Below the pieces are notes generated by a model. The model saw nothing but the letters and a program-made list of their open reading frames with translations, ran no database searches and was not told the origin of the DNA. Source: an uncultured Candidatus Saccharibacteria bacterium (GTDB taxonomy: Bacteria; Patescibacteriota; Minisyncoccia; RBG-13-40-8-A). Taken from it: a stretch of DNA of 64,000 nt. The stretch covers positions 321,587 to 385,586 of the forward strand of contig OZ246412.1 of the NCBI GenBank assembly GCA_965231075.1. Direction: 5' to 3'. Position 1 is the first letter of the stretch. The number at the start of each line of letters is the position of its first letter. Position numbers and translations under genes: made by a program. Of the stretch, positions 721 through 52,545 are shown piece by piece.

Positions 721-734
721 TCTGTATAATTCAA

Positions 735-1403: not shown

Positions 1404-1491
1404 ATTGTTTGCCCTGTTAAATTCGCCTTTCGGCGACCCGCTTCGCGGGATTTAACGGGGTGAATTTAATTATTATCCCCTCCAAAATGAA

Positions 1492-2376: not shown

Positions 2377-2414
2377 ATAGTCATATTATATATTAATAAA
2401 TGTTTTGTAAAACA

Positions 2415-2442
2415 TTGACAAATTCTGTGTATATGTTATAAT
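2415..2442 (+). promoter_or_regulatory. Sigma-70 promoter TTGACA-N16-TATAAT of the TPM cassette
   Basis: TTGACA at 2415-2420, TATAAT at 2437-2442, then AAGGAGGT Shine-Dalgarno 6 nt before GTG 2470. Confidence 0.6.
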
Positions 2443-2469
2443 TAGGTCAATACCAAAAGGAGGTATCGC

Positions 2470-3219: not shown

Positions 3220-3325
3220 GTATTTAGAACGTTTAGGGGAAATCGCTTCGGCGATCTCCCCTATTTTTTTCTCGACCTTACGTTGGGATTTTGTCTTTAG
3301 ATTTTTGGCATGATAGAATCAATTT

Positions 3326-4666: not shown

Positions 4667-4691
4667 CAAATATCGCATATTATGATAAAAT
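4663..4691 (+). promoter_or_regulatory. Sigma-70 promoter TTGACA-N17-TAAAAT for the small membrane protein cassette
   Basis: TTGACA 4663-4668, TAAAAT 4686-4691, followed by GAGGAGGT SD and TTG start at 4724. Confidence 0.55.
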
Positions 4692-4723
4692 AAAGTAGTT
4701 CGAATCAATTAGAGGAGGTTCGT

Positions 4724-5017
4724 TTGATCGAACAACTGTGTGCTGTTTTCTCTGTTTCGGACGTGGTGGCGCAAGTGATCGGGTCGGTCAAGACCTGGAT
4801 CATCAAGATGGATCGGGCGTTCTTGCGTAAGGACCCCTTTCTACTGCTGACGGCGGTATCCTATGTCGTCGCGATGGCTATCGGGACGATGACGGGGCTG
4901 CTGTTCAGCAACGAACTCACCCAATTCATCGTCTTCTTATCGGCGTGGTTGGTGGTGTTCGTGGGCTTGGGCGTCACCTATTGGTTTTTCTTCGCCAAGC
5001 TGGCGCGGAAAAACTAG
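4724..5017 (+). CDS. Small (97 aa) GC-rich integral membrane protein of unknown function; alien cassette
   Basis: Three predicted TM helices, G/C-ending codon bias, perfect SD, TTG start, own terminator. Confidence 0.55.
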   Translation: MIEQLCAVFSVSDVVAQVIGSVKTWIIKMDRAFLRKDPFLLLTAVSYVVAMAIGTMTGLLFSNELTQFIVFLSAWLVVFVGLGVTYWFFFAKLARKN

Positions 5018-5030
5018 ACAGAGAGCGGAC

Positions 5031-5068
5031 AAAGGCCGAGTGGGAAACCACTCGGCCTATTTTATTTT
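5031..5068 (+). terminator. Rho-independent terminator of the 4724-5017 cassette
   Basis: AGGCCGAGTGG-GAAA-CCACTCGGCCT hairpin followed by TATTTTATTTT. Confidence 0.7.
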
Positions 5069-5085
5069 GCTAACGCATATTTAAA

Positions 5086-6396
5086 ATGTTAAAATTTAAA
5101 CTTATGCTAGATCACGTTAAAAAAATACATTTTATTGGGGTTGGAGGCGTGGGAGTTTCGGCAATTGCCAGAATGGCCCGACTTAAAGGCATAAAAGTTA
5201 CCGGCTCTGATGTTTCCATGAATAAAATGGCCGAAAGAATTCAAACCATTCACGGCAAAATTTTTATTGGTCACAAGCGCGAAAATTTACCCCAAGACAC
5301 TGATATGGTTGTTTATTCCCCCGCCATAACCGAAGATAATCCCGAAATGATTTACGCTAAAGAATTAAACATTCCCACCTATTCATATCCCGAAATTCTA
5401 GGAATAATTTCTAAGGACATGCACACAATTGCCGTTTCCGGAACTCACGGCAAAACTACCACCACTTCCATGCTTGCGGAATTATTTATTTATGGAAATT
5501 TAGATCCCACAGTTGTTGTTGGGGGTCTTTTAAAAAAACAAGAAGATAATTTTGTTTTGGGAAGCAGTAAACACTTTATTGTTGAGGCCTGCGAATATAA
5601 GGAGTCGTTTCTGAACTTAACTCCCAATATTTTAATAATTTTAAACATTGATAATGATCATTTAGATTATTATGGGACAATTGAAAATGTTAAAACCGCA
5701 TTCAAAAAATTAATCGAAAAAGTGCCCGATGACGGATATATAATTTACAACGGAGATGACGAAAATGTTTTAGATGTCTTGGGTAATGCAAGTACAAATG
5801 CTAAAAAATTAAATTATTTAGACGTAAAAGCCGAAATTAAACTTTCTGTTCCTGGCGAACATAATTTAAAAAATGCCAAAGCCGCATTTACGGTTGCGAG
5901 ATTAAACGGAATCACAGAAAATGTGGCCTTAAAAATTTTAAAAAATTATACCGGCACTTGGCGCAGGTTTGATTTTATGGGAAACACAAAAACTGGCGCT
6001 TTAATTTATAACGATTATGGCCATCATCCCACAGAAATTAAAGCGACTATTGCTGCAGCAGAACAATTATATTACGATAATAGAATTTTTGTTGTCTTTC
6101 AGCCACATTTATTTTCACGCACAAAACTTTTATTAAACGATTTCGCAACTGCTTTTGATTTGGCGGATGAAGTAATTATCACCGATATTTATGCTGCCAG
6201 AGAAAAAGATGATCACTCAATCCATGCTAAAGATTTAGTTGATGCGATAAATAAAAAAATCATTAAAGCAAAATACGTTAATGATTTTGATAATATTAAA
6301 AAATATTTAGAACTTAAAGCACAAAAAGACGACATCATCCTCCTCCAGGGCGCGGGGGATGTTTACAAGATTGGAGAAGAAATTGTAAAAAAATAA
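5086..6396 (+). CDS. murC: UDP-N-acetylmuramate--L-alanine ligase
   Basis: HFIGVGGVGVSAIA N-terminal motif, GTHGKTTTTSM P-loop, Mur ligase domains. Confidence 0.85.
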   Translation: MLKFKLMLDHVKKIHFIGVGGVGVSAIARMARLKGIKVTGSDVSMNKMAERIQTIHGKIFIGHKRENLPQDTDMVVYSPAITEDNPEMIYAKELNIPTYSYPEILGIISKDMHTIAVSGTHGKTTTTSMLAELFIYGNLDPTVVVGGLLKKQEDNFVLGSSKHFIVEACEYKESFLNLTPNILIILNIDNDHLDYYGTIENVKTAFKKLIEKVPDDGYIIYNGDDENVLDVLGNASTNAKKLNYLDVKAEIKLSVPGEHNLKNAKAAFTVARLNGITENVALKILKNYTGTWRRFDFMGNTKTGALIYNDYGHHPTEIKATIAAAEQLYYDNRIFVVFQPHLFSRTKLLLNDFATAFDLADEVIITDIYAAREKDDHSIHAKDLVDAINKKIIKAKYVNDFDNIKKYLELKAQKDDIILLQGAGDVYKIGEEIVKK

Positions 6397-6398
6397 AT

Positions 6399-7424
6399 TT
6401 ATTTAATACCCTCTCCGCCGAACCATTTTTTGTATAGCGTGTCGTAAAGTCCGCTCTCTTGGACAGTTAAGATTGCACGATTTATTTTCTCTCTTAATGG
6501 GCTGTTGTTTTCTAGAACAAAACCGTAATCTTGTTTATCAAATAACTCTCCTACAATTTTAACTTTTCCCGCTCCTTCATTAAGGGCATAATATTCTAAA
6601 ATTGGTGCATCAAACACAACGACTTCAACTTCGTTGTTTTTTAATTTTTCGTATGCTTCTTCTATCTTAATCACAGGTACAATTATCGCTCCCAAACTTT
6701 TTAATACCGGTTCAGTGGTTGTCCCTTGGACCGTAGCAACAACTTTTCCCGACAAATCTTTGGGGCCCTCGATATTAAGTTTTATTTTTCTGGTTGTTAA
6801 AAATGCCGTAAATTGTCCGATAATCAACCCTAGCGCAGCCAGTTTAACTAATTGTCCGAATTGAACAACAATAAACCCCGCCCAAGATTGAACCTTGTAA
6901 ACTGTTATCATTGCCGGAGAACCAAGAATCATTGATAAAGAAAACCAAATTGCCTGAAAAATTCCTGGAAAATACGTTTTTGAAAATGTTTCGGCACTTT
7001 TTTCTGTTAACCACAACACATTACCAAAAACAATAATTATTAGAGCCAAAAGAAGTATTGGTTTTAATAATTTTTTATATCCTTGTGTAAAAAATGTCTT
7101 TATCGTACTACCAATATTTACTCTCGATCTGTCTTTTGACAACAGAATACGCAACCCGGAATGAAAGGTTGCGTGTGAAAAATCAATAACTTCTTCGCGT
7201 TTCTCGTTAATCGTTATCGAAGCCATAGCAATGTCTGCCTTTTTGTCGGCAACAAGTGGAATCAATTCTTGAAAATTATATTTGCTATATTCAAAATCTG
7301 TTTGGATTTCCTTGGCAATCATTTCCCATAATTCAATTTCAAACCCAGAATATTTTCCATCTTTCTCAAAAACGAAAGGAGAAAGATTTGTCACCGCGAT
7401 TTTTAATTTATTTGTCATATACAT
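6399..7424 (-). CDS. Ionotropic-glutamate-receptor-like ligand-gated channel: a split periplasmic amino-acid-binding (SBP_bac_3) domain interrupted by an M1-pore-M2 channel module
   Basis: Lobe 1 (LKIAVTNLSPFVFEKDGKYSGFEIELW...ADIAMASITINEKREEVIDFSH), TM/pore segment, lobe 2 (GKVVATVQGTTTE...VVVFDAPILEYY...YGFVLENNSPLREKINRAILTVQESGLYDTLYKKWFG). Confidence 0.65.
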   Translation of the reverse strand: MYMTNKLKIAVTNLSPFVFEKDGKYSGFEIELWEMIAKEIQTDFEYSKYNFQELIPLVADKKADIAMASITINEKREEVIDFSHATFHSGLRILLSKDRSRVNIGSTIKTFFTQGYKKLLKPILLLALIIIVFGNVLWLTEKSAETFSKTYFPGIFQAIWFSLSMILGSPAMITVYKVQSWAGFIVVQFGQLVKLAALGLIIGQFTAFLTTRKIKLNIEGPKDLSGKVVATVQGTTTEPVLKSLGAIIVPVIKIEEAYEKLKNNEVEVVVFDAPILEYYALNEGAGKVKIVGELFDKQDYGFVLENNSPLREKINRAILTVQESGLYDTLYKKWFGGEGIK

Positions 7425-7440
7425 TTATTATATCATAAAC

Positions 7441-7470
7441 AAAAAAATCCCGTAATGTGGGATTTTTAAG
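7441..7470. terminator. Bidirectional hairpin terminator between tRNA-Ala and the channel gene
   Basis: AATCCCGTAATGTGGGATT flanked by A7 and T5. Confidence 0.55.
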
Positions 7471-7544
7471 TGGTGGACCATAGGAGAATCGAACTCCTGT
7501 CCTCCGGATGCAAACCGGGAGCTCTACCACTAAGCTAATGGCCC
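7471..7544 (-). tRNA. tRNA-Ala (anticodon UGC), CCA encoded
   Basis: GGGCCAT acceptor with G3:U70, anticodon loop TTTGCAT, T-arm GGAGTTCGATTCTCC, 3' CCA. Confidence 0.85.
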
Positions 7545-7556
7545 TCAAATAAAATT

Positions 7557-7630
7557 TGCGCGTGCATGGACTCGAACCATGGACCTCGTCATTATCAGTG
7601 ACGCGCTCTAACCGCCTGAGCTACACGCGC
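7557..7630 (-). tRNA. tRNA-Ile (anticodon GAU), no encoded CCA
   Basis: GCGCGTGTAGCTCAGGCGGTTAGAGCGCGTCACTGATAATGACGAGGTCCATGGTTCGAGTCCATGCACGCGC; the classic rRNA spacer tRNA. Confidence 0.85.
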
Positions 7631-7638
7631 GAAAAATC

Positions 7639-7797
7639 TTAGGCCTTGCCTAAAATTTTAAACATTCCTGTTCCACAAACTGGACAAACACCTTTTAATG
7701 CTCTTCTGTCCCCTCCCTTTCCTTTCATTTTAACTTCTTTGGCGTCTTTCATTTCTTGTTTTGCTCTACACTTAACACAATATGCAATATCTGCCAT
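7639..7797 (-). CDS. 52-aa C4 zinc-ribbon protein encoded between 16S and tRNA-Ile (MADIAYCVKCRAKQEMKDAKEVKMKGKGGDRRALKGVCPVCGTGMFKILGKA)
   Basis: Below the 60-aa ORF-track cutoff; found by hand translation. CxxC...CxxC, highly basic. Own promoter TTGATT-N18-TATAAT (about 7841-7870, minus strand). Stop lies 4 nt from tRNA-Ile. Confidence 0.5.
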   Translation of the reverse strand: MADIAYCVKCRAKQEMKDAKEVKMKGKGGDRRALKGVCPVCGTGMFKILGKA

Positions 7798-7870
7798 AAA
7801 AATAAAATTTATTAATTATTAATAAACTTACTTTATTATACAGCTAAAATAATAATAAAATCAAGCACAA

Positions 7871-7906
7871 ATAAAAAAATCGTCTAATAGACGATTTTTT
7901 TATTTC
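7871..7906 (-). terminator. Hairpin terminator downstream of the 16S 3' end
   Basis: AATCGTCTA-AT-AGACGATT followed by T7ATTT on the minus strand (and A-run/T-run on both sides). Confidence 0.55.
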
Positions 7907-8042
7907 GAATTCTTTATGGTTTTCCCGATACTTATTATTTGTTTAGTACAAATAATTAAAAAACTTTTTATGTTACTGCCTTATCGGCAAATAATCGACT
8001 CTTACTTAATAAATTTTATTTACTAAGTAAAAATATTTTCCA

Positions 8043-9503
8043 TCCACAGGTTCCCCTACGGATGCCTTGTTATGACTTCACCCTAGTCACCGAATTTACC
8101 TTAGGACTCTGAAATCAGAGCACGTCAGGTACTCCCGGCTTCTCTGGTGTGACAGGCGGTGAGTACAAAGCTTGAGAACGTATTCACCGCAGCGTAGCTG
8201 ATCTGCGATTACTAGCGATTCCGGCTTCATGGGGTCGAATTGCAGACCCCAATCCGAACTGGGGCCGATTTTGATGAGATTGGCTCCATCTTACGACTTG
8301 GCGACTCATTGTATCGGCCATTGTAGCGCCTGTGTTGCCCAGGGTATCAAAGGGCCATGCTGATTTGGCGTCATCCCTACCTTCCTCCTCGTATCACGAG
8401 GCAGTCTTGTCTGACACTTATAACAGACAACAGGGGTTGCGCTTGTTACCCGAATTAACGGAGCAACTCACGCCACAAGCTGACGACAACCATGCAGCAC
8501 CTGTTCTAGTGTCCTTGTAGAAGACCCGACTTTCATCAGGCTTTCACTAGAATTTCAAACCCTGGTAAGGTTCTCCGCTTACCGTCGAATTAAACCAGAC
8601 GCTCCACCGCTTGTGCAAGCTCCCGTCTATTCCTTTGAGTTTTAGTCTTGCGACCGTACTTCCCAGGCGGAGTACTTAACGCGTTAGCTTCGTCACCTGA
8701 AGGGTCGATACTTCAGACAACTAGTACTCATAGTTTAGGGCGTGGACTACAAGGGTATCTAATCCTTTTTGCTCCCCACGCTTTCGTCTCTCAGGGTCAG
8801 AAATGCACCAGCCAAATGCCTTCGCCTTTGGTATTCCCTAAGGTATCAACGGATTTCACCCCTACTCCTTAAGTTCTATTGGCCTCTCACACTCTCTAGT
8901 CTGACCGTTTCCCCTGCAGTTTCGATGTTGAGCATCGAAATTTAACAGAAGACGTATCAAACGCCCTACAGACGCTTTACGCCCAGTAATTCCGGACAAC
9001 GCTTGGGGTACTCGTATTACCGCTGCTGCTGGCACGAGTTTAGCAACCCCTTATTCATAGAGTACACTCAAAAATTGCTCCTCTATAAAAGTACTTTACA
9101 TCCCGAAGGACTTCTTCATACACGCGGCGTCGCTCCATCAGACTTTCGTCCATTGTGGAAGATTCTCGACTGCAGCCTCCCGTAGGAGTAAGGCCCGTAT
9201 CTCAGTGCCATCGTTGGGGAACACGCTCTCACGCCCCCTACCCGTCATCGCCTTGGTAAGCCATTACCTTACCAACTAGCTGATAGGACGCAGGCCACTC
9301 TCTCACCATCTTATCTTGCGATAAGACTTTACTCTTGCGAGACCATCGGAAATTATCTTGCCTTTCGGCAAGTTATGTCCGAGTCAGAGGGATGTACCTA
9401 CGTATTACTAACTCGTTCGCCATGGGTCTAAACCCATTCGACTTGCATGCCTAATCCACGCCGCCAGCGTTCGTCCTGAGCTAGGATCAAACTCTCAATA
9501 AAG
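8043..9503 (-). rRNA. rrs: 16S rRNA, complete, about 1.46 kb
   Basis: 5' end AGAGTTTGATCCTAGCTCAGGACGAACGCTGGCGG (reverse complement at about 9470-9503). 3' end ...GTCATAACAAGGCATCCGTAGGGGAACCTGTGGATGGA (8043-8080). The 530 loop reads GTGCCAGCAGCAGCGGTAATAC (9014-9035), carrying the C-to-A change in the 515F site reported for Patescibacteria. Confidence 0.9.
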
Positions 9504-22208: not shown

Positions 22209-22487
22209 TTAAAGACCGAGTCGTTTTTTGAGTTCCTCCTCACCCTCAATCCTGATAGGATCAATCTTAAACGGTTCGCCCTCTAGTGGTTCACAGATAC
22301 TTTCTCCTGATCTGCGTAAATCACAGAGTTTGCCGTTTATCCCGTGTTCCAGGACTTTTGGGCTTACCCCCGTCCCCATGTCGATGTCTTCGACGGTTTC
22401 ACCGTGTACACTGCAACAGGAATAGGTTCCATCCGGTTCTGGCTTGAAAAACAATCGATACATGCAGGTAAAGCACTGTCCTTTCAT
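22209..22487 (-). CDS. 92-aa Cys-rich protein of unknown function, translationally coupled to thyX (ATGA overlap); GC-rich
   Basis: MKGQCFTCMYRLF...YSCCSVHGETVED...; seven Cys, GC-rich codons. Confidence 0.45.
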   Translation of the reverse strand: MKGQCFTCMYRLFFKPEPDGTYSCCSVHGETVEDIDMGTGVSPKVLEHGINGKLCDLRRSGESICEPLEGEPFKIDPIRIEGEEELKKRLGL

Positions 22488-23200
22488 TTCGAGTACCCCT
22501 TTGTTGCCATTTCCTGAAAATCCTTAAACAAAGATGGTGCTTGCTGCATCACGATATCGTAAAACAGTTTATGGAGCCGCCGAATCTCCCACTCGGCATC
22601 TTGAGCCAATCGAAGATTAAACAGATACCGCAGAGATCTGGCGTTGCAATAAGCGTAGCATGGCGTGCACCAGAAAACCGGCATGTTTTTCCTCGAATCT
22701 TGCTTTGTGGCACCCAGAGCGATTTTGGAATCATATTCCGCGATTGCTCTTTTGGCGGTTTTTTCATCGATGCTCAGAAGTTGTTTGACCGAATCTTCAT
22801 CTTCGACGTAATGATAGGTATTGTAAACAAATCTGTTCTGACTTGCCGAGATAAATCTCGTGCTTCTGAATGTCCATCCAATACCGATTCTGTGCCGAAC
22901 CCATTGGTTCTGTAGACTTTTGGTAATACCGTCTACGTCAAAGACGAAAGATAGTGCCTCAAGAGGAGTGTGATGCCCCTTCTTGATTAGCCACTCGTTC
23001 AGTCTTAGGTCGTCGATTATTGTCCCCAAAGATTCGTGGCTTCTTCGTGCGGTGAAGGCCGGAAGAGTCTCGGGTGTAACCAACTCGATGTACCTGCCAA
23101 CCGGTTGTGTCATTGCCACCAATTCAGCAACCGGTTCGACGTTTCTGAACAACCCTTCCCTCAAATGTTTCCATTTGTCGATGTCCGCGTATTCGATCAT
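22484..23200 (-). CDS. thyX: Flavin-dependent thymidylate synthase
   Basis: RHRIGIGWTFRSTR (ThyX RHR...S signature), 238 aa, GC-rich. Confidence 0.8.
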   Translation of the reverse strand: MIEYADIDKWKHLREGLFRNVEPVAELVAMTQPVGRYIELVTPETLPAFTARRSHESLGTIIDDLRLNEWLIKKGHHTPLEALSFVFDVDGITKSLQNQWVRHRIGIGWTFRSTRFISASQNRFVYNTYHYVEDEDSVKQLLSIDEKTAKRAIAEYDSKIALGATKQDSRKNMPVFWCTPCYAYCNARSLRYLFNLRLAQDAEWEIRRLHKLFYDIVMQQAPSLFKDFQEMATKGYSK

Positions 23201-23201
23201 G

Positions 23202-23663
23202 TTAAACCTCCTCAGTATCGGTGATTTGTATCAATTCGATGCCAACTCCGGCAAAAAGTTCGGAAACCTGCGGAAACTCTTCTTCATAGCGCTTGACGTA
23301 AAAAACTCTTTTGACGCCCAGGTTGTTAAGATGCTTGGCACAGTCGTAACACGGCGAATAAGTGCAATAGAGATCGCAATCCGATAAATTAATGCCATTT
23401 TTCGCGGCATTTACAATGGCATTCATTTCTGCGTGAGCACCTCTGCACCTTTTTGATCCTGAAGGAAGAAATTTTCCATCGACTTTTTTGGCGCACCCCA
23501 CCGCGTCACAGTGTTTATCGCCGGCAGTTGGACCATTATAGCCAACCTGCAAGAGTTGCTTTCCACGAACAAAAACGGCGCCAATTTGATAAAGCTGACA
23601 TCTTGATTTTTTTGCCAGAAGATTAACCATCTCCACGAATAGTTTCTGCCAAGAAATAGCCAT
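23202..23663 (-). CDS. dCMP deaminase (cytidine/deoxycytidylate deaminase family)
   Basis: HAEMNAI zinc motif and SPCYDCAK second zinc ligand pair; 153 aa; GC-rich. Confidence 0.8.
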   Translation of the reverse strand: MAISWQKLFVEMVNLLAKKSRCQLYQIGAVFVRGKQLLQVGYNGPTAGDKHCDAVGCAKKVDGKFLPSGSKRCRGAHAEMNAIVNAAKNGINLSDCDLYCTYSPCYDCAKHLNNLGVKRVFYVKRYEEEFPQVSELFAGVGIELIQITDTEEV

Positions 23664-25458: not shown

Positions 25459-26034
25459 TCAAAGCTTAACGCTGAAACTCGCTTCTCCGGTCCAGCCAGA
25501 GTTGATCGTGTCCCAAGCGAACCAGAACTGGATCGCCCCGAACTTGACCGTAGGACCGATTTGGAAGAAAATCGTCTTTTCTCCAAACGTCCCGCAACCG
25601 GACCAGCGGAGACCCCAGCCGTCCTTGCCAACCGTGTGACGAACGAACCAGATCCCCTTACCATCGCGGTCGATCCCAACTTCGTTGACGAACGCCCCGA
25701 ACAGGCCGAAGGCCGAAATCACGGGCGTCACATCCATGGTCACGGAATTGACCAATTCCTTGGTCTTCTTCGCGGCCAGATTGAAGTGGGGACCAATGGC
25801 TACCTGGACCGATCCGATCTTGCCCAGCTTGAATGCCGGGGGACCGAATTTGGTCAGCAGAGACCCGGACCCGGGCCAGGTCAGCATGAAGTAGTAGTTC
25901 ATGCCCTTAGGCGCGTCGTGGAAATACCACGCATTCGCCTTCGAAGGAAAGACCTGGAACTGAGCCCGGTCTTCCGCCACGGCCATCGGAACCATGAACA
26001 GGACGAGCAGAACAACGATCATAAGATTTTTCAT
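25459..26034 (-). CDS. GC-rich secreted beta-rich protein (191 aa, signal peptide, aromatic/Gly-rich; ends ...FSVKL); alien cassette
   Basis: AGAGGAG SD, consensus promoter at 26074-26102, G/C codon bias. Alternating aromatic strands suggest a beta-barrel or beta-sandwich. Confidence 0.55.
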   Translation of the reverse strand: MKNLMIVVLLVLFMVPMAVAEDRAQFQVFPSKANAWYFHDAPKGMNYYFMLTWPGSGSLLTKFGPPAFKLGKIGSVQVAIGPHFNLAAKKTKELVNSVTMDVTPVISAFGLFGAFVNEVGIDRDGKGIWFVRHTVGKDGWGLRWSGCGTFGEKTIFFQIGPTVKFGAIQFWFAWDTINSGWTGEASFSVKL

Positions 26035-29623: not shown

Positions 29624-30768
29624 ATATTTATTGTATTGTTTTTACAAATTTCAGAGTAAATTTTGCTACTTTCGCGTGGAATGCGTTTTAAATTGTTGTT
29701 GCGGTCTATTTCCATTAACCCAAACCTCGGCCAAAAACCTTTATCCCATTCAAAGTTGTCTAACAGAGACCAGTGAAAATATCCCTTGATATCAGCGCCA
29801 TTTTCTATTGCTTTATGAATCCATTTTAAGTGATCAATAATGAATTTTGCGCGTTTTTCATCTTTTGCGTCAGCCAATCCGTTTTCTGTGACATAAATTG
29901 GTCTATTGTATTTTTTTAGATCCATTAAAACATGGTAAATTCCTTCGGGCACAATTTTCCATCCCATATCTGTGAGTTGATTGTTTGTTGTGTTCTGCTT
30001 AATCCTTAAGTGGTTTATAGCAGAAAATAAACTATGCGTGAAATAATAATTTAAGCCAATAAAATCATAATAATTTTTAATTTTATTTAGAAACCAATGG
30101 TTGTAAGTGTAGTCACCAAAAATTCTTATAATCCCTTTAAGCCAAGTATTGTTTGTGACTAAACCCACCTTTGAATCTGGCGCAACTTTTTTTATAATTT
30201 CGAAAGATGACTTGTGGGCTTTGACTAATTGTCTTGCGACTTTTATTGTTTTAATAATGTTCTTGGTGAATGGGGGCCAAACACCTTGTAAATAACAATT
30301 TGGCGCATATATATTCGGCTCATTTAATGTAATCCAGAATTTTACCGAATCTTTATATTCTGAAACAATTTTTTCTGTAAATCTAGCAAAATATTCTGGC
30401 GCTTTTGGGTTTAACCAGCCTCCTTTTTCTGTAAACCATATTGGCAATGTCCAGTGATATAAACCTACGAACGGTTCCAGTCCGCGTTGTTTTAGGGCCA
30501 AAATTACTTTTCTATAATGAGCAATTTCATTTTGATCAAATTTTCCTTCTTCGGGTTCAATTCGAGCCCACTCGATTGAAAATCTGTGGGCATTATTATT
30601 CATCGATTTTGCTAAATCGAAATCTTCTTCAAATCGATTATAGTGATCACAGGCGGTTTCCGCATCATATCTATTTCCGGCGTTAGACCAGTCGTTTTTA
30701 ATTCCTCCTTCAACTTGATATGAAGCAGTTGCCGTTCCCCAATAGAATTTATCAGGAAATTTTAACAT
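29620..30768 (-). CDS. Glycoside hydrolase family 1 beta-glucosidase
   Basis: FYWGTATASYQVEGG N-terminus, ITLNEPN acid/base and YVTENG nucleophile motifs. Confidence 0.8.
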   Translation of the reverse strand: MLKFPDKFYWGTATASYQVEGGIKNDWSNAGNRYDAETACDHYNRFEEDFDLAKSMNNNAHRFSIEWARIEPEEGKFDQNEIAHYRKVILALKQRGLEPFVGLYHWTLPIWFTEKGGWLNPKAPEYFARFTEKIVSEYKDSVKFWITLNEPNIYAPNCYLQGVWPPFTKNIIKTIKVARQLVKAHKSSFEIIKKVAPDSKVGLVTNNTWLKGIIRIFGDYTYNHWFLNKIKNYYDFIGLNYYFTHSLFSAINHLRIKQNTTNNQLTDMGWKIVPEGIYHVLMDLKKYNRPIYVTENGLADAKDEKRAKFIIDHLKWIHKAIENGADIKGYFHWSLLDNFEWDKGFWPRFGLMEIDRNNNLKRIPRESSKIYSEICKNNTINI

Positions 30769-31928
30769 TATTGTATGATCAAAATATTATTATAGTTCTC
30801 AGTTAAAACTGTCTCGGCTTTTTGGTTTTTAATATTCAACCTAATAATTTTAAACATATTCACTACATCACTATCTGATTTTTCAAGAAAATATAAATAA
30901 TTACTAGAATCTTCGTACCCTAACTGACTAATATAGCTTCCGGAATATAATTTTGTGTCTGTCTCTTTATATAGGTCAATTAAATGAATTGTTTCTTTCA
31001 CATTTTGACCACTAATCGTTTCTTGTTCTGTATAAAAAAATTCTTTTTCACTATCAGACCAAATTTTATCACTAATCCTGTCGGTGGTTAAAATTGGTTT
31101 GTATTCTTTGGTTTCGAAACTTCCTAAATATAATTCGGTAATTTCCTTTTCGTTCTTTTTGCTGTAAATTTCATATAGGAATAACTTTCCACTCGGTGAA
31201 AATTCTATGTTTTGACAATAAACCATACCCTCCCCACACCCCTTTGGTTCAATATATTCTATTTGCTTGGTTTGAACGTTTATTCTGCCCAGGGTCTTGT
31301 TGTTAACATCAAAAATTCCTTGGAAATAAATATAATCACCATCCCAACGTTTTAGTAAAACAACATTCTCTTCGAGGCTGAGCAAAAGTCTTGCATTTTC
31401 TCCGTCAACACGACTGATCCACAATTCTCTTTTTTCCCTGCTTTGTTCAATCTCTTCGTAGGTTGAACCCTGAACTTCTTTTATCCAGGCGATATTGTTG
31501 CTATCAGATGAAAAAACCATTGAAGTAGAATCGATTGGTTGTTCAATTTTTTTCTCTTTTCCGGTTTTTAAATTAACTAAAATTAAATCATAAAAAATCC
31601 TACTAGCAACCATGTTGTCTCCGAAATTTTCAATAATTTCTTCTTTATCCTTCTTTAAATAGATTAATTGTCGATTATCGTTCGAAATAAAAGATCTTTT
31701 TGGTGGCTTATATTTATTCAAATCAATTTCTTGGGCGTCGACAGTAATCACTTTTTCTCCTTCGCCACTACCATTTAATAGGAATAGGTCTGCTTTGTTT
31801 TTGTTTAAACGATAATAAAAAACCCCCGCACCTAATTGGGGAGCAAAAATTTTCCAGGCCAAAATGCCTAGAATAATACCTATTAATACAGCGATTAAAA
31901 CAAAGAAAGTTGTACGCTTCCTCTCCAT
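30768..31928 (-). CDS. Membrane-anchored protein, likely beta-propeller (TolB/PD40-like)
   Basis: N-terminal TM helix plus a repetitive beta-rich body. Confidence 0.4.
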   Translation of the reverse strand: MERKRTTFFVLIAVLIGIILGILAWKIFAPQLGAGVFYYRLNKNKADLFLLNGSGEGEKVITVDAQEIDLNKYKPPKRSFISNDNRQLIYLKKDKEEIIENFGDNMVASRIFYDLILVNLKTGKEKKIEQPIDSTSMVFSSDSNNIAWIKEVQGSTYEEIEQSREKRELWISRVDGENARLLLSLEENVVLLKRWDGDYIYFQGIFDVNNKTLGRINVQTKQIEYIEPKGCGEGMVYCQNIEFSPSGKLFLYEIYSKKNEKEITELYLGSFETKEYKPILTTDRISDKIWSDSEKEFFYTEQETISGQNVKETIHLIDLYKETDTKLYSGSYISQLGYEDSSNYLYFLEKSDSDVVNMFKIIRLNIKNQKAETVLTENYNNILIIQ

Positions 31929-31987
31929 ATAAAATATATCCTATCACAATTTTAATCCCTGATCAATAAGTTATCCCCATGTTTCGT

Positions 31988-32015
31988 TTGACTTTCTCAT
32001 AAATTTTGTTACACT
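31988..32015 (+). promoter_or_regulatory. Candidate promoter TTGACT-N16-TACACT for the GC-rich non-coding island
   Basis: 31988-31993 TTGACT, 32010-32015 TACACT. Confidence 0.35.
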
Positions 32016-32019
32016 TAAA

Positions 32020-32476
32020 TTAGCGGTCCGATGGAGGAGGTGATCCAAGCATCTGACTTCGGTCCGATCCCACTGAAAGGAGAGTTATGACAATTTGATT
32101 GTCTAAGGTCGAGGCATTCGGTAAAATCCCACTGACCGGCCAAAGGAAGAGAGGAGGATACTGTTTGCTTGCGTAGGTGTACCTTCAAAGACATCGCCCT
32201 AATATAGGGGCACCGAGGATTGGTCTTAGGACCTCCGGACAATAGTCCCAGTGTATCGCGTTTCTTCGGAAATGCGAATGACTAGAGGATGAGTCCCCTC
32301 GAACAAAAGAGGCAATTGCCTAACGTTCACTTTTGCGTGCCGTGTGCACTGCATAAAGTACTCAAGAACCGTTAGGGTTCGCCTTACCTCCGGGTAAAAA
32401 TTAAAACCCGACAGGTCGCACCATAGGGGCCAAAAAAACAGGGCTTCTCCCGGCGGGAGAAGCCCTTTATTATTTT
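32020..32476 (+). ncRNA. Candidate structured ncRNA of unknown class (about 450 nt, GC-rich, no ORF longer than 75 aa)
   Basis: GC is far above the local background, as for rRNA and tRNA in this genome. UUCG-loop hairpins on the plus strand (GAC-UUCG-GUC; CGCGUUUC-UUCG-GAAAUGCG). Internal repeat AUCCCACUGA..GG..AAAGGA. Ends in a strong bidirectional terminator GGGCTTCTCCCG-GCG-GGAGAAGCCC (32441-32465). Begins with GGAGGAGGTGATCCAAGC. Confidence 0.4.
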
Positions 32477-32493
32477 AAAATTAGTATTTTATA

Positions 32494-33762
32494 TTATTTC
32501 CACGGACCCCAAAAATAATTTTTTTTACCCTTACGAATAATAACAAGGTCGTGTAGCCTGTCTTTTTTTGTTAAAACCATTCCCGTGTCGTTAACAAGAT
32601 TACCGTTTATAGTTACTGAATTGCTCAAAATAAACTCTTTCGCCTCCCTTTTAGATTCGACGACTTTGGCATCAACCAAAAGGTCAATCGGTTGAATACT
32701 TTCTTTGTTTTTATCAATTTCGAAATGAAATGGGCTACTAAACGCATTATAGGTATCTTTTTTTGAAAGCTTTTTAATGTCTCCCCCAAACAGAACATTG
32801 GTAATCTCCTCTGCCTTTTTTAGTTCTTTTTCTCCGTGAATCATTTTGGTTAATTCTCGGGCCAAAACCTTTTGCGCAACTCGATTTTGAGGATTCTTTG
32901 CTACTTCTTCGGTTTCTAATCTTGAGATCTCTTCGTTTGATAAAAACGTAAAATATTTTATAAAATTAATCACTTCTTTGTCGTCGACATTGATCCAGAA
33001 TTGATAAAATTGGTACGGGCTAGTTTTTTTGGCATCAAGCCAGATTGCCCCAGTTTCAGTTTTCCCAAACTTAGAACCATCAGACTTGGTAATCAGGGGA
33101 ATGGTTAGTGCGAACACCTCTTTTTGTTCTGTTTTACGAATTAAATCAATTCCCGCCGTAATATTTCCCCACTGATCACTTCCACCAATTTGGAGTTCAC
33201 AATTGTATTTTTTATAAAGATTCAAAAAGTCATACGACTGCAAAAGCATATAACTAAACTCTGTAAAAGAAATTCCCGTCTCAATTCGTGACTTAATCGA
33301 TTCCTTGGCCAACATTGCACCAATTGAAAAATGTTTACCAACATCACGAATAAAATCAATCATTTTAACTTCGCCCAGCCAATCAATATTGCCAACAACT
33401 TTTGTTCTTCTGCCATCAAATGACATTGTATTTTCTATCTGCTTTTTAATCTCTTTTGACCAGGTGTCTACTGTTTTTTTGGAATTTAAGACTCTTTCTG
33501 ATTTTTTTCCGCTCGGATCACCAATTAAGCTTGTGCCGTTACCTAAAAGCACAATTGGTTGATGACCAGCCATTTGAAATCGTTTTAATGTCAATAGTGG
33601 CAAAAGATTCCCAACATGCAAACTGTCTGCGGTTACATCAAAACCACAATACAAAACACACGACTTTTCCAATCGTTTTCTTAAAACATCAATATCGGTA
33701 GTTTGATTTAATAATCCCCTAAATTTTAAATCTTCTAATATATGCATGATTTTATTATACAA
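32494..33762 (-). CDS. tyrS: Tyrosyl-tRNA synthetase
   Basis: LYCGFDVTADSLHVGNLLPL (HIGH region), KFGKT (KMSKS), C-terminal S4 domain. Confidence 0.85.
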   Translation of the reverse strand: MYNKIMHILEDLKFRGLLNQTTDIDVLRKRLEKSCVLYCGFDVTADSLHVGNLLPLLTLKRFQMAGHQPIVLLGNGTSLIGDPSGKKSERVLNSKKTVDTWSKEIKKQIENTMSFDGRRTKVVGNIDWLGEVKMIDFIRDVGKHFSIGAMLAKESIKSRIETGISFTEFSYMLLQSYDFLNLYKKYNCELQIGGSDQWGNITAGIDLIRKTEQKEVFALTIPLITKSDGSKFGKTETGAIWLDAKKTSPYQFYQFWINVDDKEVINFIKYFTFLSNEEISRLETEEVAKNPQNRVAQKVLARELTKMIHGEKELKKAEEITNVLFGGDIKKLSKKDTYNAFSSPFHFEIDKNKESIQPIDLLVDAKVVESKREAKEFILSNSVTINGNLVNDTGMVLTKKDRLHDLVIIRKGKKNYFWGPWK

Positions 33763-44009: not shown

Positions 44010-45506
44010 CTATTTAATCTCTTTCTTTGGTCTCATTAACGGGAAAATAACGGTTTCGCGAATCGGTTTACCCTCTAAAAATGCAAACAACCTTTCAGAA
44101 ACACCAAAACCACAGGTCGGTGGCATGCCATATTCTAGGGCTTCCACAAAATCATTATCGGTCATCTGCGCTTCTTCGTCTCCACCCTCTCTTAGTTTTT
44201 GTTGGTCGTTAAATCTTCCCAGTTGATCAATTGGATCATTTAATTCCGAAAATCCCTTGCCTAGCTCTGACCCCGCCAAAATAACCTGAAATCTTTCCAC
44301 TAAGTTGTTGTCCTTTTCCATTCTTTTGGCTAACGGTTCCATGGTTACTGGCACGTTAATTAAAAATCCCGGACCAGCAATATCTTTTCGGCAATATTTC
44401 CATAAACCGTCAATTGCTCTAGTGATATTAAATCCTTTCTTGTCGTAATCAACTTTCAATTCATTCAATTTGTTTTCTATTGTTTTTAGATCAGAATTTA
44501 ATACATTGATTCCTGTCATTTTTTTTATTATCTCAATATAATCGTAGATTTCCCATTTTTTAGCAAAATCAATATTGAATCCCTTAATTTCAAATTTGGT
44601 TTTACCATAAACTTCTTTAGCAATTTTCTTATACATTTCTTCGATTAATTTCATTCCGTCATTATAATCGGCAAATGCCCAATAAAATTCCATTTGGGTA
44701 TAATCCTGTAAGTGTTCTGCGTCCATGCCTTCGTTTCTAAAAATTCTGCCAATTTCAAAAACTTTCGGATATCCCGCAACAATTAATCTTTTAAGCCATA
44801 ATTCATCAGAAATTCTTAAATAAACATCTAAATCTAAGGCGTTATGATGAGTGATAAATGGCCTGGCCTCTGCGCCACCGGTTGTGTTTTCTAAAACCGG
44901 AGTTTCAACCTCCATAAATCCTTTTTCGATTAAAAAATTTCTCATTGTTTGCCAGAATTTAAATTTTCTCACAAACATTTCTTTTATCTCTGAATTGATT
45001 AGAATATCTAAATATCTTTTTCGTAGTTTCTCTTCAGTGTCTTCAAGTCCATACCATTCACTGGGAATCGGCATTATCGATTTGGTTAAAATTCTCCAAC
45101 TCAAGACTTGAAGGGTTTGTTCGCCTTTTTGAGTTAAAAACAATTTTCCTTTTGCTTCAATAAAGTCCCCCAAATCAATGTTGTTGATAAATAAATCATA
45201 ATTTGTATCACTGATTAGATCTTTTTTGAAATAAAGCTGGATTTTGGCATAACCGTCCTCAATGTGACAAAAAGTTGAACCTCCGTGCCCTCTTAATGAA
45301 CGCACCCTACCCACCAAGGTTATTTCTTTGCCTTTTTGCACAACCCCGTTTTTGTCTGGCTTGCCAGCAAGTTTTTTAAAACCATCTATTGCTTCGGCGT
45401 TGGTGTGTGTAAATGAAACACCAGCCGTAAACGGATTCATTCCGGCTTTTTTTAGATTTTCTAATTTTTGTATCCTAACTTTTCGGATTTCTTCTAAATT
45501 GTCCAT
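44010..45506 (-). CDS. lysS: Lysyl-tRNA synthetase (class II)
   Basis: OB anticodon domain plus class II core. -10 TAAGAT lies 6 nt before the ATG (leaderless). Confidence 0.85.
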   Translation of the reverse strand: MDNLEEIRKVRIQKLENLKKAGMNPFTAGVSFTHTNAEAIDGFKKLAGKPDKNGVVQKGKEITLVGRVRSLRGHGGSTFCHIEDGYAKIQLYFKKDLISDTNYDLFINNIDLGDFIEAKGKLFLTQKGEQTLQVLSWRILTKSIMPIPSEWYGLEDTEEKLRKRYLDILINSEIKEMFVRKFKFWQTMRNFLIEKGFMEVETPVLENTTGGAEARPFITHHNALDLDVYLRISDELWLKRLIVAGYPKVFEIGRIFRNEGMDAEHLQDYTQMEFYWAFADYNDGMKLIEEMYKKIAKEVYGKTKFEIKGFNIDFAKKWEIYDYIEIIKKMTGINVLNSDLKTIENKLNELKVDYDKKGFNITRAIDGLWKYCRKDIAGPGFLINVPVTMEPLAKRMEKDNNLVERFQVILAGSELGKGFSELNDPIDQLGRFNDQQKLREGGDEEAQMTDNDFVEALEYGMPPTCGFGVSERLFAFLEGKPIRETVIFPLMRPKKEIK

Positions 45507-45529
45507 GATTTTATCTTAACAGATTTCTG

Positions 45530-45580
45530 AAAATAAAAAAAGAGGGGCGCCTAAGGCGCCCCTCTTTTTATTTTTATTCT
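45530..45580. terminator. Bidirectional terminator between lysS and the ATPase gene
   Basis: A-run, AGAGGGGCGCC-TAA-GGCGCCCCTCT, T-run. Confidence 0.7.
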
Positions 45581-47118
45581 TTTTTATCACCCACTGCTTT
45601 TTTGATTGCCTCGCGGACACTGGCTAGATCGATTTCCATTTTTTTCTTGACCTGTGATGGTGGGGGCATTTGTGGTTTTTTTTCTCGTTCTTTTTGTAAA
45701 CAATTCGCACAGTAAACTGGTCTTTTTCCGTCGGGAGCAAAAGCAACTTTAGTTTTCTTGCCACAATTTGCGCAAATAGTTTCGAATCTTTTCCCGCTTT
45801 TTTCCTCCTCGGGCTCGAGTCCTTCATTCCATCTCGCAATCTTTTCTTCAACAATCTTTCTCGGCACAGCATATCTTTCTCGAGAAATTTTAATTGTCGT
45901 TTCTTTATATGATTTATCAGGAACTGGAGGAATTTTGGTCGTGGAAGCACTGAAAGCGCGCGAAGCGAATCCATTAACCATTAATTTCAAATAGATATTA
46001 TAATTGGGAATATTGACTAAATCATCAATGGTAAATGCTGGCAGAAATTCTTTTTCCAAAAATTCCGCATCGTCGGCACCCACCCTGAATGTAATTATTG
46101 TTCCCACGTTTCCAAAAATTGCGTCTCTTACTTTTGTATTTCTACCCTTATCACCCATGGTTTCAAGTTGCGCAACATATTGGTGGGCAAGGATTAAACA
46201 TAATTTATATTTTCTGGCTTCTGATAATGTGGTTGCAAACGCATCAGTAGCAAAGTTTTGAAATTCATCAACATAAAGATAAAAATCCTTTCTTTCTTCT
46301 TCGGCCATATCGGCTCTTTCCATGGCTGCTAATTGTAATTTGGTAATCACTAACGCGCCCAATAACTGTGAAGCATCTTCTCCAATTTTGCCCTTGGGCA
46401 AATTAACAATCAAAATCTTTTGATTGTCCATTATCTCTCGCATATTAATCGAAGATTTGACTTGCCCGATAATATTTCGAATAAGTGGCGTAGTAATGAA
46501 TTGACCAACTTTATTTTGAATTGGTGCCACTGCTTCTTCTCTGAATTTGTCGGGATATTTGGCAAATTCATTATTCCAAAAAGATTTAACTCCTGGATCG
46601 GTAATTTTTTCTACTACCTTTTGTCGGTAATCTTTGTCAGCCAATAAACGATTAATGCCTAAAAGCGTTGCTCCGGGATATTCCAACAGCGCTAAGATTG
46701 AATTTCTTAAAATGTACTCCATTCTTGCCGACCAAACATCCGGCCAAATCTTTTTAAATACGCCCATTAATCCCGATGCAATCAGATAGCGATATTCTGA
46801 ATCCACTTTTTCCATAATATTAAAAGTTATGGGAAAATCAACATCAGCAGGATTAAAATAAATTACGTCATTTACCCTGTTTGAAGGAATATAATCCAAC
46901 ATTTTTTCAGCAAACTCACCGTGTGGATCAACAACTGCCAAACCACTTCCATTCTGAATGTCTTGAATCGCCATGTTCTTTAATAATTCTGACTTACCCA
47001 CACCAGTTTTTCCAATAATATAAGTATGCTGACGCCTGTCTTTGGTTTTAATACCAAATCTGACCTTATGATTACGAAAGCTGGTTTCACCTAGGATTGT
47101 AATATCTTGTTCACTCAT
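45574..47118 (-). CDS. 514-aa soluble HerA/VirD4-like (DUF87) P-loop ATPase with a C-terminal zinc ribbon; split version
   Basis: IIGKTGVGKSE...VVDPHGEF; FYLYVDEFQNF; ILAHQY; C-terminal CANCGKK...YCANC. Confidence 0.7.
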   Translation of the reverse strand: MSEQDITILGETSFRNHKVRFGIKTKDRRQHTYIIGKTGVGKSELLKNMAIQDIQNGSGLAVVDPHGEFAEKMLDYIPSNRVNDVIYFNPADVDFPITFNIMEKVDSEYRYLIASGLMGVFKKIWPDVWSARMEYILRNSILALLEYPGATLLGINRLLADKDYRQKVVEKITDPGVKSFWNNEFAKYPDKFREEAVAPIQNKVGQFITTPLIRNIIGQVKSSINMREIMDNQKILIVNLPKGKIGEDASQLLGALVITKLQLAAMERADMAEEERKDFYLYVDEFQNFATDAFATTLSEARKYKLCLILAHQYVAQLETMGDKGRNTKVRDAIFGNVGTIITFRVGADDAEFLEKEFLPAFTIDDLVNIPNYNIYLKLMVNGFASRAFSASTTKIPPVPDKSYKETTIKISRERYAVPRKIVEEKIARWNEGLEPEEEKSGKRFETICANCGKKTKVAFAPDGKRPVYCANCLQKEREKKPQMPPPSQVKKKMEIDLASVREAIKKAVGDKKE

Positions 47119-52149: not shown

Positions 52150-52545
52150 ATGACCAAGAAAATCCTTTACGCTCTTTTCATCGTGTTCGTGGTCGGTATC
52201 CTGGCCAACGCCGGGTACCACATCGGCGAGATCTGGGGTTCGGTCCAGGGGGACGTCGTCGACCCCACGTTCGTCCAGAGCTTTCTGGCCGGACCGGACA
52301 AGGTTCTCGATTTCGAGAAGGACATCGATTCGACAGTCCAGGGAATCGTCTTCACGTTACTGGGAATCCCCTTCCTGGTCATCGTGCTTCTTCTCTGGAT
52401 CGTCTACTTCCTGTTCTTCGGAGAGCTGTTCCGGTTCATCGGGGTTCTCCCGTCGATCCTGGCCACGCTGGCCAGCATCGTGATCGCGGTGATCTGCCTC
52501 AAGCGGAGCCGCGAGAACAAGACCACAACCACGACCACGACCTGA
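52150..52545 (+). CDS. GC-rich 131-aa membrane protein with a poly-Thr C-terminus; alien cassette
   Basis: About 3 TM helices, ...ENKTTTTTTT, G/C codon bias. Confidence 0.55.
   Translation: MTKKILYALFIVFVVGILANAGYHIGEIWGSVQGDVVDPTFVQSFLAGPDKVLDFEKDIDSTVQGIVFTLLGIPFLVIVLLLWIVYFLFFGELFRFIGVLPSILATLASIVIAVICLKRSRENKTTTTTTT

Follow-up and report, generated by a model that had tools for sequence, protein, structure and literature searches.

The CsrB/RsmX-Y-Z RNAs are sponges in which short hairpins are separated by purine-rich GGA boxes that copy the ribosome-binding sites of the mRNAs they regulate. C-rich small RNAs (sRNAs) such as RsaE/RoxS and LhrC repress through pairing with the Shine-Dalgarno region, and the STAB-SD elements that Agaisse and Lereclus are said to have described in 1996 are reportedly 5' Shine-Dalgarno-like sequences of Bacillus transcripts that bind the 30S subunit and protect the RNA. 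To our knowledge, regulatory RNAs have hardly been described in Patescibacteria, which account for a very large share of the bacterial tree and are mostly uncultured, and a literature search found no described RNA of this kind in that group. The present study concerns positions 31988-32476 of a 64-kb stretch of contig OZ246412.1 (the whole stretch is called the window below). This segment very probably constitutes a stand-alone plus-strand gene for a structured non-coding RNA, equipped with a strong promoter and a terminator of its own and belonging to a previously undescribed family of a narrow Patescibacteria clade. The best explanation overall, which we put forward tentatively, is a member of a new RNA family that acts in trans as a mimic of Shine-Dalgarno sites.

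Predicted transcription unit, strand and folded core

The initial annotation had singled out this segment as a GC-rich non-coding island, and its composition bears this out. GC content is 0.477 in 32001-32400 against 0.33-0.36 on the flanks, in a window that is AT-rich overall (~0.33-0.37); GC skew and AT skew are both positive there and negative in the flanks; and the longest open reading frame (ORF) of the island is a 75-codon, TTG-started frame on the minus strand (32015-32242). The further statement that this is the only GC-rich island without an ORF holds once the rRNA genes are set aside, but not otherwise; the other GC-rich islands (2470-3219, 4724-5017, 22209-23663, 25459-26034, 52150-52545 and 60080-60610) are ORFs with start signals. 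The island does lie antisense to both neighbours, tyrS and the gene for a 386-aa protein, which are encoded on the minus strand (Table 1).

The annotated plus-strand promoter is of the sigma-70 type, matches the consensus at 9 of 12 positions with the TG present, and predicts a transcription start at ~32022-32023. A promoter scan of the single sequence performs no better than chance (3 found versus 2.5 expected). Comparison with relatives, whose loci are designated by L numbers, places the pattern TTGAC(T/A)-N16-18-TGnTAnAnT at the equivalent position and at equal distance from the RNA body in L082, L085, L086, L091, L095, L096, L097, L098, L099 and L102; it is thus kept in 10/10 homologous loci although the surrounding sequence has diverged. 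The strong bidirectional terminator proposed at the other end is likewise present, with a 12-bp stem between an A-run and a U-run, and it stands between the island and tyrS; the same hairpin ends the convergent tyrS transcript. Hairpin and U-tail are found on the plus strand in all homologues; L091 and L098 have a poor U-run when the tyrS strand is read. Terminator-like sites number 5, versus 1.0 expected.

No dinucleotide shuffle folds as well as the plus strand (z = -4.3). C(UUCG)G tetraloops, two of which had been annotated in the window, occur on the plus strand in the window, L097, L085 and L095, and read C(CGAA)G on the other strand. Eight G.U cells in the helices become A.C mismatches if read on the minus strand, and in three of the eight the window differs from L097, its nearest relative, by a single change (C-G to U.G in H4, U-A to U.G in H2, G-C to G.U in H5). 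The RNA is assigned to the plus strand because of four independent lines of evidence: the promoter, the U-tail, the UUCG loops and the G.U pairs.

The central part of the RNA forms a core domain of five hairpins (H1-H5). Covariance model R1, built for this core, scores 75-101 bits in L097, L095, L085, L096 and L102, and RNAalifold on a plain MAFFT alignment recovers H1, H2 and H4. In a hand-curated core alignment of six members, which was fitted to the structure and is hence biased towards it, pairing extends to 98.7% of cells, and changes on both sides are seen in 14 of 31 pairs, a level reached by 0/500 shuffles; sliding the partners by one column lowers pairing to 52-65%. The covariance-model alignment, scored on the RNAalifold structure, gives 84.7% paired cells and double changes in 12 of 18 pairs, again with 0/500 shuffles reaching it. 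H1, H2 and H4 hold their pairing through compensatory changes. H1 and H4 are the best supported helices, and H3, which is broken in L097, and H5 are weaker. The GAGG and CCUC segments may pair to close the H2-H5 domain; because neither segment ever varies, covariation cannot test this helix. The sample (at least 11 sequences, one clade) is too small for a formal covariation significance test. The homologous regions with their compensatory changes uphold the original proposal of a novel structured plus-strand RNA, as do the negative searches for known RNAs and protein remnants given below.

Outside the core, comparison of the sequences suggests a modular RNA that grows by tandem duplication and hairpin insertion. 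The 5' hairpin (module A) varies in its stem but stays paired, as GAUG/CAUC, UUGGA/UCCAA, GAGA/UCUC, UUCGAGA/UCUCGAA and GAAG/CUUC in five lineages, around a loop of consensus (G)AGGAGGUGAUC(C). GGUGAUC of this loop can pair with a downstream GAUC[CC]AC in repeat unit 1 (AUC[CC]AC(U/C) across members) with a conserved 2-nt bulge, and L102 carries a compensatory change in this helix (loop G to A, partner C to U, turning G-C into A-U). The internal repeat already noted in the annotation is a 19-nt direct repeat, TTCGGTCCGATCCCACTGA at 32058-32076 and TTCGGTAAAATCCCACTGA at 32117-32135, spaced by 59 nt. It reflects a tandem duplication that makes up the 5' half of the window RNA, with a unit of ~59 nt composed of UUCGGU..AUCCCACUGA, AAAGGAG.. 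and a hairpin. The hairpin of unit 1 becomes AAGCA-AUU-UGCUU in L102 with pairing kept, and unit 2 combines a ribosome-binding-site look-alike with a 3-codon frame. The latter arrangement, module F (AGGAGG-N6-7-UUG CUU GYN UAG/UGA), is present in the window, L097, L085, L096, L082 and L099, with a longer frame in L102. The number of repeat units differs between relatives. Among the short members, L086 consists of module A and CUCAAC only, and L091 of only a 3' module (GAGACAC, a stem and AACUCAAC) that is common to L082, L099 and L098.

Table 1. Features of the RNA gene and its neighbours in the window.
Feature	Position	Strand	Description
386-aa protein gene	30768-31928	minus	N-terminal hydrophobic membrane anchor; without Pfam domain
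Sigma-70-type promoter	31988-32015	+	-35 TTGACT 31988-31993; 16-nt spacer ending in TG; -10 TACACT 32010-32015
Predicted primary transcript	32022-32476	+	~455 nt; from start to end of terminator U-tail, by promoter and terminator positions
Module A, 5' hairpin	32030-32053	+	short stem GAUG/CAUC (or UGGA/UCCA) around loop GGAGGAGGUGAUCC (32033-32046)
Small hairpin GAC-UUCG-GUC	32055-32064	+	insertion in window and L097; absent in L085
Repeat unit 1	32058-32116	+	UUCGGU..AUCCCACUGA; box AAAGGAGAG; hairpin GACAAU-UUG-AUUGUC 32089-32103
Repeat unit 2	32117-32176	+	UUCGGU..AUCCCACUGA; purine box AAAGGAAGAGAGGAGG (GGAGG 32153-32157); 7-nt spacer; UUG CUU GCG UAG 32165-32176
Core domain	32194-32308	+	covariance model R1, 102.5 bits
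H1	32196-32211	+	loop AAUAUA (AAYAUA in family)
Invariant GAGG	32215-32218	+	
H2	32222-32233	+	
Pyrimidine linker	32231-32238	+	ACCUCCGG
H3	32237-32248	+	
H4	32258-32275	+	GCGUUUC-UUCG-GAAAUGC; UUCG loop
H5	32287-32296	+	
Invariant CCUC	32297-32300	+	
Lineage-specific 3' extension	32305-32432	+	several hairpins; unrelated sequence in L097; absent in L085, L095, L096, L102
Intrinsic terminator	32440-32476	+	12-bp stem 32440-32466; 8 G-C pairs; A-run before; U-rich tail UUUAUUAUUUU
tyrS	32494-33747	minus	neighbour of the island

TyrS places the window in Patescibacteria, the closest species-representative genome being a 'Patescibacteria group bacterium' at 80% identity, and TyrS homologues at 73-74% identity are named Candidatus Portnoybacteria. 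The clade belongs to Parcubacteria, with Candidatus Portnoybacteria as the closest named relatives. At least 10 relatives carry a homologous RNA of 84-459 nt, always in the spacer between tyrS and the gene for the 386-aa protein (69-565 nt in relatives), and these loci share the layout of promoter, RNA and a terminator common with tyrS on the strand opposite tyrS. Lengths are ~455-457 nt in the window, 459 nt in L097, 427 nt in L095, 414 nt in L098, 341 nt in L085, ~326 nt in L102, 238 nt in L099, 235 nt in L082, >222 nt in L096 (where the contig end cuts the RNA), 92 nt in L091 and 84 nt in L086. L090 and L103 have intact synteny and only the terminator in a spacer of 69 or 101 nt; these two close relatives have lost the gene, and it is dispensable, as expected for a regulator. 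Synteny itself is lost in the more distant relative L104. The core covariance model found no second copy in the window and none beside tyrS in Saccharibacteria, Tagabacteria and Paceibacterota loci. A tyrS search of species-representative genomes gave no usable copy of the RNA, and more distant lineages are without it. The two closest species-representative contigs (L002 and L010) end inside tyrS, and runs of 100 N stand at the position of a short RNA in three NCBI-derived records of metagenome-assembled genomes (L088 ~5268-5367; L092 and L093 ~4267-4366), replacing the RNA in L092 and L093 and falling within a duplicated copy of the spacer in L088. These N-runs and contig ends may be an artefact of assembly or masking.

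The initial annotation had looked in vain for signatures of RNase P, transfer-messenger RNA (tmRNA) and signal recognition particle (SRP) RNA and had assigned no class, a position that model searches support. At gathering scores, the 4227 models of Rfam 15 have no match in the island or in the 10 homologous loci, and in the window match only the 16S gene, the start of the 23S gene and three tRNAs. With the threshold relaxed to E = 10, the island, the entire window and the 10 homologous loci yield no matches beyond those due to chance or to the terminator; the best in the island, ncS011 (29.2 bits; gathering score 48), owes its score to the terminator hairpin and does not recur in homologues. 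At this relaxed threshold neither RNase P types A and B (island and 10 homologous loci) nor the tmRNA clan gave an Rfam match, and the P4-core motifs of RNase P (GGAAAGUCC ... ACAGAA..GGCUUA) are absent from the sequence. ARAGORN reports the three tRNAs of the window and no tRNA or tmRNA in the island. SRP RNA, 6S, T-box, riboswitches, OLE, ROOL, GOLLD, HEARO and raiA are without a match in the cmscan search of the same families. A tRNA-like 3' end (GCGGUC pairing with GGUCGC-ACCA) with a tmRNA tag frame was considered and rejected: it lacks a T-arm, the segment is missing in homologues, and the GGUCGC-ACCA string (32414-32423) lies inside the lineage-specific extension.

Searches for coding sequence were equally negative. 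Six-frame stop-free segments gave nothing better than E = 0.07 against Pfam and NCBIfam, the longest stop-free stretch (88 aa) has no relative among 5.8 billion proteins, and indels between homologues break every candidate reading frame. A 25-codon plus-strand frame (MSKVEAFGK...) that seemed conserved between the window and L085 is shifted by a 7-nt insertion in L097, and another frame, which would begin with the GUG within GGAGGUGAUC, lacks any spacing to the box and encodes peptides that are not conserved. A mobile element was rejected for want of target duplication, terminal repeats and a second copy in the window or in the other Patescibacteria loci searched, the only flanking inverted repeat being an AT-rich 10-mer (31927-31936 and 32485-32494) taken as chance. 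A phage origin was also rejected, as two viral-contig pattern scans gave only ordinary ribosome-binding sites and unrelated phage coding sequence.

Boxes resembling ribosome-binding sites

The long members of the family are rich in sequences that look like sites of translation initiation. GGAGG occurs 3-4 times per long member versus 0.3-0.6 expected, which in most of them is an enrichment of 5-10 fold over composition-matched shuffles (p <= 0.02 in 6 of the 8 long members). The window RNA contains AGGA 8 times (2.3 expected), GAGG 8 times (2.2) and GGAGG 3 times (0.6), with similar counts in L097, L085, L096 and L102. The RNA carries 2-4 box look-alikes in which an A-rich run is followed by GGAGG(G), often 6-7 nt before a UUG or AUG. 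These match the start sites of accessory genes, as seen in AAGAGAGGAG-N7-AUG of the gene at 25459-26034 versus AAGAGAGGAGG-N7-UUG of the RNA.

The accessory genes in question are six GC-rich (0.46-0.57) ORFs: 2470-3219 (+), 4724-5017 (+), 22484-23200 (-), 25459-26034 (-), 52150-52545 (+) and 60080-60610 (-). Apart from ThyX and a TPM-domain protein, their products are mainly small proteins, membrane-bound or secreted, with no Pfam domain. Six of six ORFs have a AAGGAGGU-type Shine-Dalgarno box 6-8 nt before the start, carried on a leader of ~25-30 nt. The flanks were read for 4724, 25459, 52150 and 60080, each of which has its own TTGACA-N17-TATAAT promoter and strong terminator. Similar Shine-Dalgarno-led inserts occupy variable regions of relatives (L085 1865-2425 and 2631-3062; L103 1943-2374; L090 2579-2932), and the GC-rich ORFs look like acquired cassettes. 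The RNA gene shares the layout of these cassettes, and its boxes look similar to the sites at which their translation starts. Shine-Dalgarno sequences are missing from the AT-rich core genes, many of which look leaderless and carry a TATAAT-like box 6-9 nt ahead of the ATG; relatives show the same pattern.

The 16S gene of the window (8028-9502, minus strand; 3' end at ~8040-8028) ends in ...GGGGAACCUGUGGAUGG (CCUGUGGAUGG), followed by AAAAUAUUUUU (AAAAUAUUUUUACUUAG). Several core genes (for example those ending at 53917, 24931 and 57618) carry AAAAAUAU(U) right before the ATG, complementary to this AAAAUAUUUUU tail, a complementarity that may well be due to chance in an AT-rich genome. The module A loop GGAGGAGGUGAUCC lies ~11 nt from the predicted transcript start, and no start codon that could be used follows it. 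This loop complements the canonical 16S 3' tail perfectly; its duplex energy is -26.1 kcal/mol with that tail and -7.0 when the tail of the organism itself is taken instead. An exact GATCACCTCC is found nowhere in the 64 kb except on the minus strand, as the complement of module A. The repeated boxes, the complementarity between the 5' loop and the 16S tail, the loss of that tail from the organism's own 16S, and the dispensability and length variability of the RNA had all gone unseen in the initial annotation.

From these features we propose, as a possibility in which we have limited confidence, that the RNA acts in trans on start regions of the Shine-Dalgarno type through mimicry. The boxes that it displays would imitate the ribosome-binding sites of the GC-rich accessory genes, one of them being presented in the 5' hairpin loop on its covarying stem. 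On the most economical reading, the RNA would serve as a decoy or sponge for whatever factor reads Shine-Dalgarno-type sites, following the logic of CsrB/RsmZ, and the copy number of the boxes would be tuned by unit duplication. The gene, its strand, its conserved hairpins, the enrichment of the boxes and the missing anti-Shine-Dalgarno sequence of the organism's 16S are shown by the data above, whereas exposure of the boxes, their binding and any regulatory effect are what we infer.

Several observations weigh against the proposed mimicry. The window 16S is without the canonical tail AUCACCUCCUUU, and CCUCC occurs nowhere in the gene, so that the organism's own ribosome cannot bind the boxes classically. 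According to a published report, about half of Parcubacteria have lost the anti-Shine-Dalgarno motif (PMC9297842), and the missing tail fits this. No CsrA domain was found among the scanned small and unassigned ORFs of the 64 kb. In partition-function folding of the single sequence, the boxes come out no more exposed than the average position, with unpaired probabilities of 0.0-0.6 against a mean of ~0.4; part of the extended Shine-Dalgarno likeness of module A may be structural, through the GUGAUC:GAUC[CC]AC pairing, and GAGG and CCUC, both invariant, might do no more than close the core domain. L091 lacks GGAGG altogether, L098 has one only, and module A is missing in L082, L099, L095 and L091. 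Finally, the family, which is predicted from sequence, comprises at least 11 members of a single clade.

Competing explanations for the RNA

If the boxes are not start-site mimics, GGAGG, GAGG and CCUC could be strands of long-range helices in a folded RNA or ribonucleoprotein scaffold unrelated to translation starts, with the conserved loops (AAUAUA, UUUGCUUG, UCCCAC) as tertiary contacts or protein-binding sites. We regard this as unlikely, though it accounts for several features: GAGG and CCUC flank H2-H5 and can pair in six of six long members (100% paired), conserved nucleotides lie in loops and junctions as is typical of complex folds, most boxes are paired in folding predictions, and the GUGAUC:GAUC[CC]AC pairing carries the compensatory change in L102. 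Against it, purine boxes outnumber their possible pyrimidine partners by ~3:1 (8-10 GAGG versus 2-3 CCUC), and helices need neither the A-rich context nor the 6-7 nt spacing to UUG or AUG. The GAGG:CCUC helix is invariant and so gives no covariation test, and a range of 84-459 nt with loss in close relatives fits a fixed catalytic or scaffold fold poorly. Somewhat less probable is an antisense-type sRNA whose conserved, single-stranded pyrimidine-rich linkers (UCCCAC, ACCUCCGG, CCCCUCGAAC) would pair with, and repress, the Shine-Dalgarno regions of the accessory genes. UCCCAC does occur 1-3 times in most members (p = 0.00 to 0.07), and all long members have the pyrimidine linker between H2 and H3 and a CCUC(A/G)A before the terminator. 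However, full CCUCC is confined to the window (two copies) and L096 (one), the others having CCCUC, CCCCU or CCUCU, and UCCCAC is probably paired with the 5' loop. A duplex scan ranks the accessory starts 52150, 4724, 2470 and 60080 best, via GACCUCC and UACCUCC, but its energies are inflated (huge internal loops allowed, no accessibility term) and too crude to interpret. An antisense role would also leave the many purine boxes without explanation.

Translation of the RNA itself is improbable. As an mRNA it would specify tiny peptides, either the 3-codon UUG CUU GYN stop (M-L-V/A) or a 16-codon frame in L098; the order Shine-Dalgarno box, 6-7 nt, UUG CUU GYN and stop is indeed kept in six members while codon 3 varies among GCG, GUG, GUC and GUA and the stop changes from UAG to UGA. 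Yet three codons are fewer than in any known functional peptide except ribosome-directed minigenes, the pattern is broken in L095 and L102, and the unit-1 frame UUG AUU GUC UAA loses its stop in L097 and L085 and its UUG forms the loop of a hairpin that covaries. Frames of greater length are interrupted by indels whose sizes are not divisible by three, and the organism's ribosome is without an anti-Shine-Dalgarno sequence. A slightly smaller chance still attaches to the perfect 11-14-nt complement of the canonical, near-universal 16S tail (GGAUCACCUCC) being functional as such, either in a separate trans system for the Shine-Dalgarno-led accessory genes or as an RNA directed against host ribosomes. 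These ultra-small bacteria are presumably host-dependent, by analogy with cultivated relatives, and in the host-directed variant the RNA would block translation initiation on host ribosomes that have the tail while sparing its tail-less producer. A functional minus strand is very improbable; it could yield an RNA ending in ...GGAUCACCUCCUCC that supplies the lost anti-Shine-Dalgarno tail in trans, the leader of the 386-aa gene, or a 3' untranslated region of tyrS. The single GATCACCTCC of the window does lie here on the minus strand, the 16S ends in ...CCUGUGGAUGG and then AAAAUAUUUUU without the tail, GAUCACCUCCU is kept in five lineages, and accessory genes with strong Shine-Dalgarno sequences call for some explanation. 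Against this, the island begins directly after the strong tyrS terminator with no space for a promoter, and it is not a leader of the 386-aa gene because that gene appears leaderless and is served by a separate conserved promoter 6-9 nt ahead of its ATG. On the minus strand the UUCG loops become CGAA and eight G.U cells A.C, L102 alters the motif to GAUUACCUCC yet keeps the internal plus-strand helix, and no similarity to small-subunit rRNA appears at E up to 10. Least probable of all is the alternative offered in the initial annotation, a functionless, decaying remnant of a horizontally acquired GC-rich gene cassette. The gene shares the build of those cassettes (TTGACA-N17-TATAAT promoter, Shine-Dalgarno sequence, strong terminator) and is patchily present among relatives, but there is no protein similarity in any frame, and the promoter and terminator are intact in 11/11 members. 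Its hairpins are maintained by compensatory changes across loci whose TyrS is 73-78% identical (loci found through TyrS) and whose 386-aa protein is 53-76% identical (loci found through that protein).

Genomic setting and comparison with described RNAs

In relatives the RNA gene sits in a conserved order: dnaX, variable genes, tyrS, the spacer, the 386-aa gene, GH1, EamA and a cysteine desulfurase. The dnaX-tyrS interval of these relatives is a variable region (L082 1871-2230; L085 1865-3992; L086 2538-3978; L102 111-2494) with inserted genes for a GIY-YIG nuclease, an AAA_33 kinase, Band_7, TspO and SET domain proteins and a tRNA; in the window it holds tRNA-Gln only. A DnaA-box-like 9-mer, TTATCCCCA, is located at 31971-31979 between the divergent promoter pair, immediately ahead of the -35 element that serves the 386-aa gene. 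It also occurs in L082, L085, L086, L091, L095-L099, L102 and L103, with the variants TTATCCACA in 5 loci, CTATCCACA in 3 and TTATCCCCA in 4, and it probably belongs to the promoter of the 386-aa gene because it is kept in L103, where the RNA gene is deleted.

Elsewhere in the window, a long near-perfect palindromic hairpin (45499-45605) occupies the 67-nt spacer of two co-oriented genes; it draws sub-gathering Rfam matches on both strands (mir-5881 at 35 bits, sraA, L20_leader) and probably terminates transcription in both directions. The rRNA operon is not contiguous: on the minus strand the 16S gene (9502-8028) is followed by a promoter and small zinc-ribbon-like ORF (~7796-7640), tRNA-Ile (7630-7557) and tRNA-Ala (7544-7471), with ~7 kb of protein genes on both strands between tRNA-Ala and the start of the 23S gene at 383 (window 1-9502).

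The locus provides a concrete RNA family with defined ends, a structure backed in part by covariation, and naturally occurring long, short and deleted forms that can be compared. Its look-alike boxes occur in a lineage whose ribosome has lost the matching sequence yet which keeps Shine-Dalgarno-led accessory genes. If the RNA is linked to this puzzle, as the mimicry reading would have it, it offers a handle on translation or its control without classical pairing; if it is not, it is one more narrowly distributed orphan structured RNA.

Among described systems, CsrB/RsmX-Y-Z resembles the window RNA in being a stand-alone RNA with its own promoter and terminator and a dispensable gene. The arrangement of short hairpins between GGA boxes appears to be shared too, and so is the wide variation of box number and length among lineages through unit duplication, and the enrichment of GGA boxes over chance is found in the window RNA as well. 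The differences are nevertheless substantial. No covariance-model or sequence similarity to CsrB, CsrC or RsmX/Y/Z was detected in Rfam at E up to 10; the box motif is GGAGG(G), whereas the sponges have A(N)GGA in a CAGGAUG-type loop; CsrB-type RNAs have no counterpart of the conserved H1-H5 core; and the scanned ORFs described above contain no CsrA. We know of no CsrA in this clade. With C-rich-seed RNAs (RsaE/RoxS, LhrC, the hairpins of RNAIII) the family has in common UCCC and CCUC motifs between hairpins and an intrinsic terminator end. Unlike them, it is much longer, has no Rfam match and contains more purine boxes than pyrimidine seeds, and its seeds are not conserved as CCUCC, with UCCCAC probably lying in an internal helix.

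The strong Shine-Dalgarno-like sequence ~10-25 nt from the predicted 5' end, with no gene after it, recalls STAB-SD. STAB-SD, however, needs pairing with the 16S 3' tail, and a role of that kind fails here because the window 16S is missing this tail, and CCUCC with it. The orphan RNAs of GC-rich intergenic regions (raiA, ROOL, OLE), discovered in AT-rich genomes by the GC-IGR approach, are likewise GC-rich and ORF-free, bounded by a promoter and a terminator, with covarying hairpins and conserved loop nucleotides. The window family matches none of them, is far narrower in distribution (one synteny block, one clade) and is far more variable in length. In its mode of action the window RNA would at best resemble a CsrB-type sponge or a C-rich-seed sRNA. 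With no model match, a different box consensus and a conserved core of its own, it is a member of neither the CsrB type nor the C-rich-seed group and is best classed as a new orphan family among the structured RNAs of bacteria.

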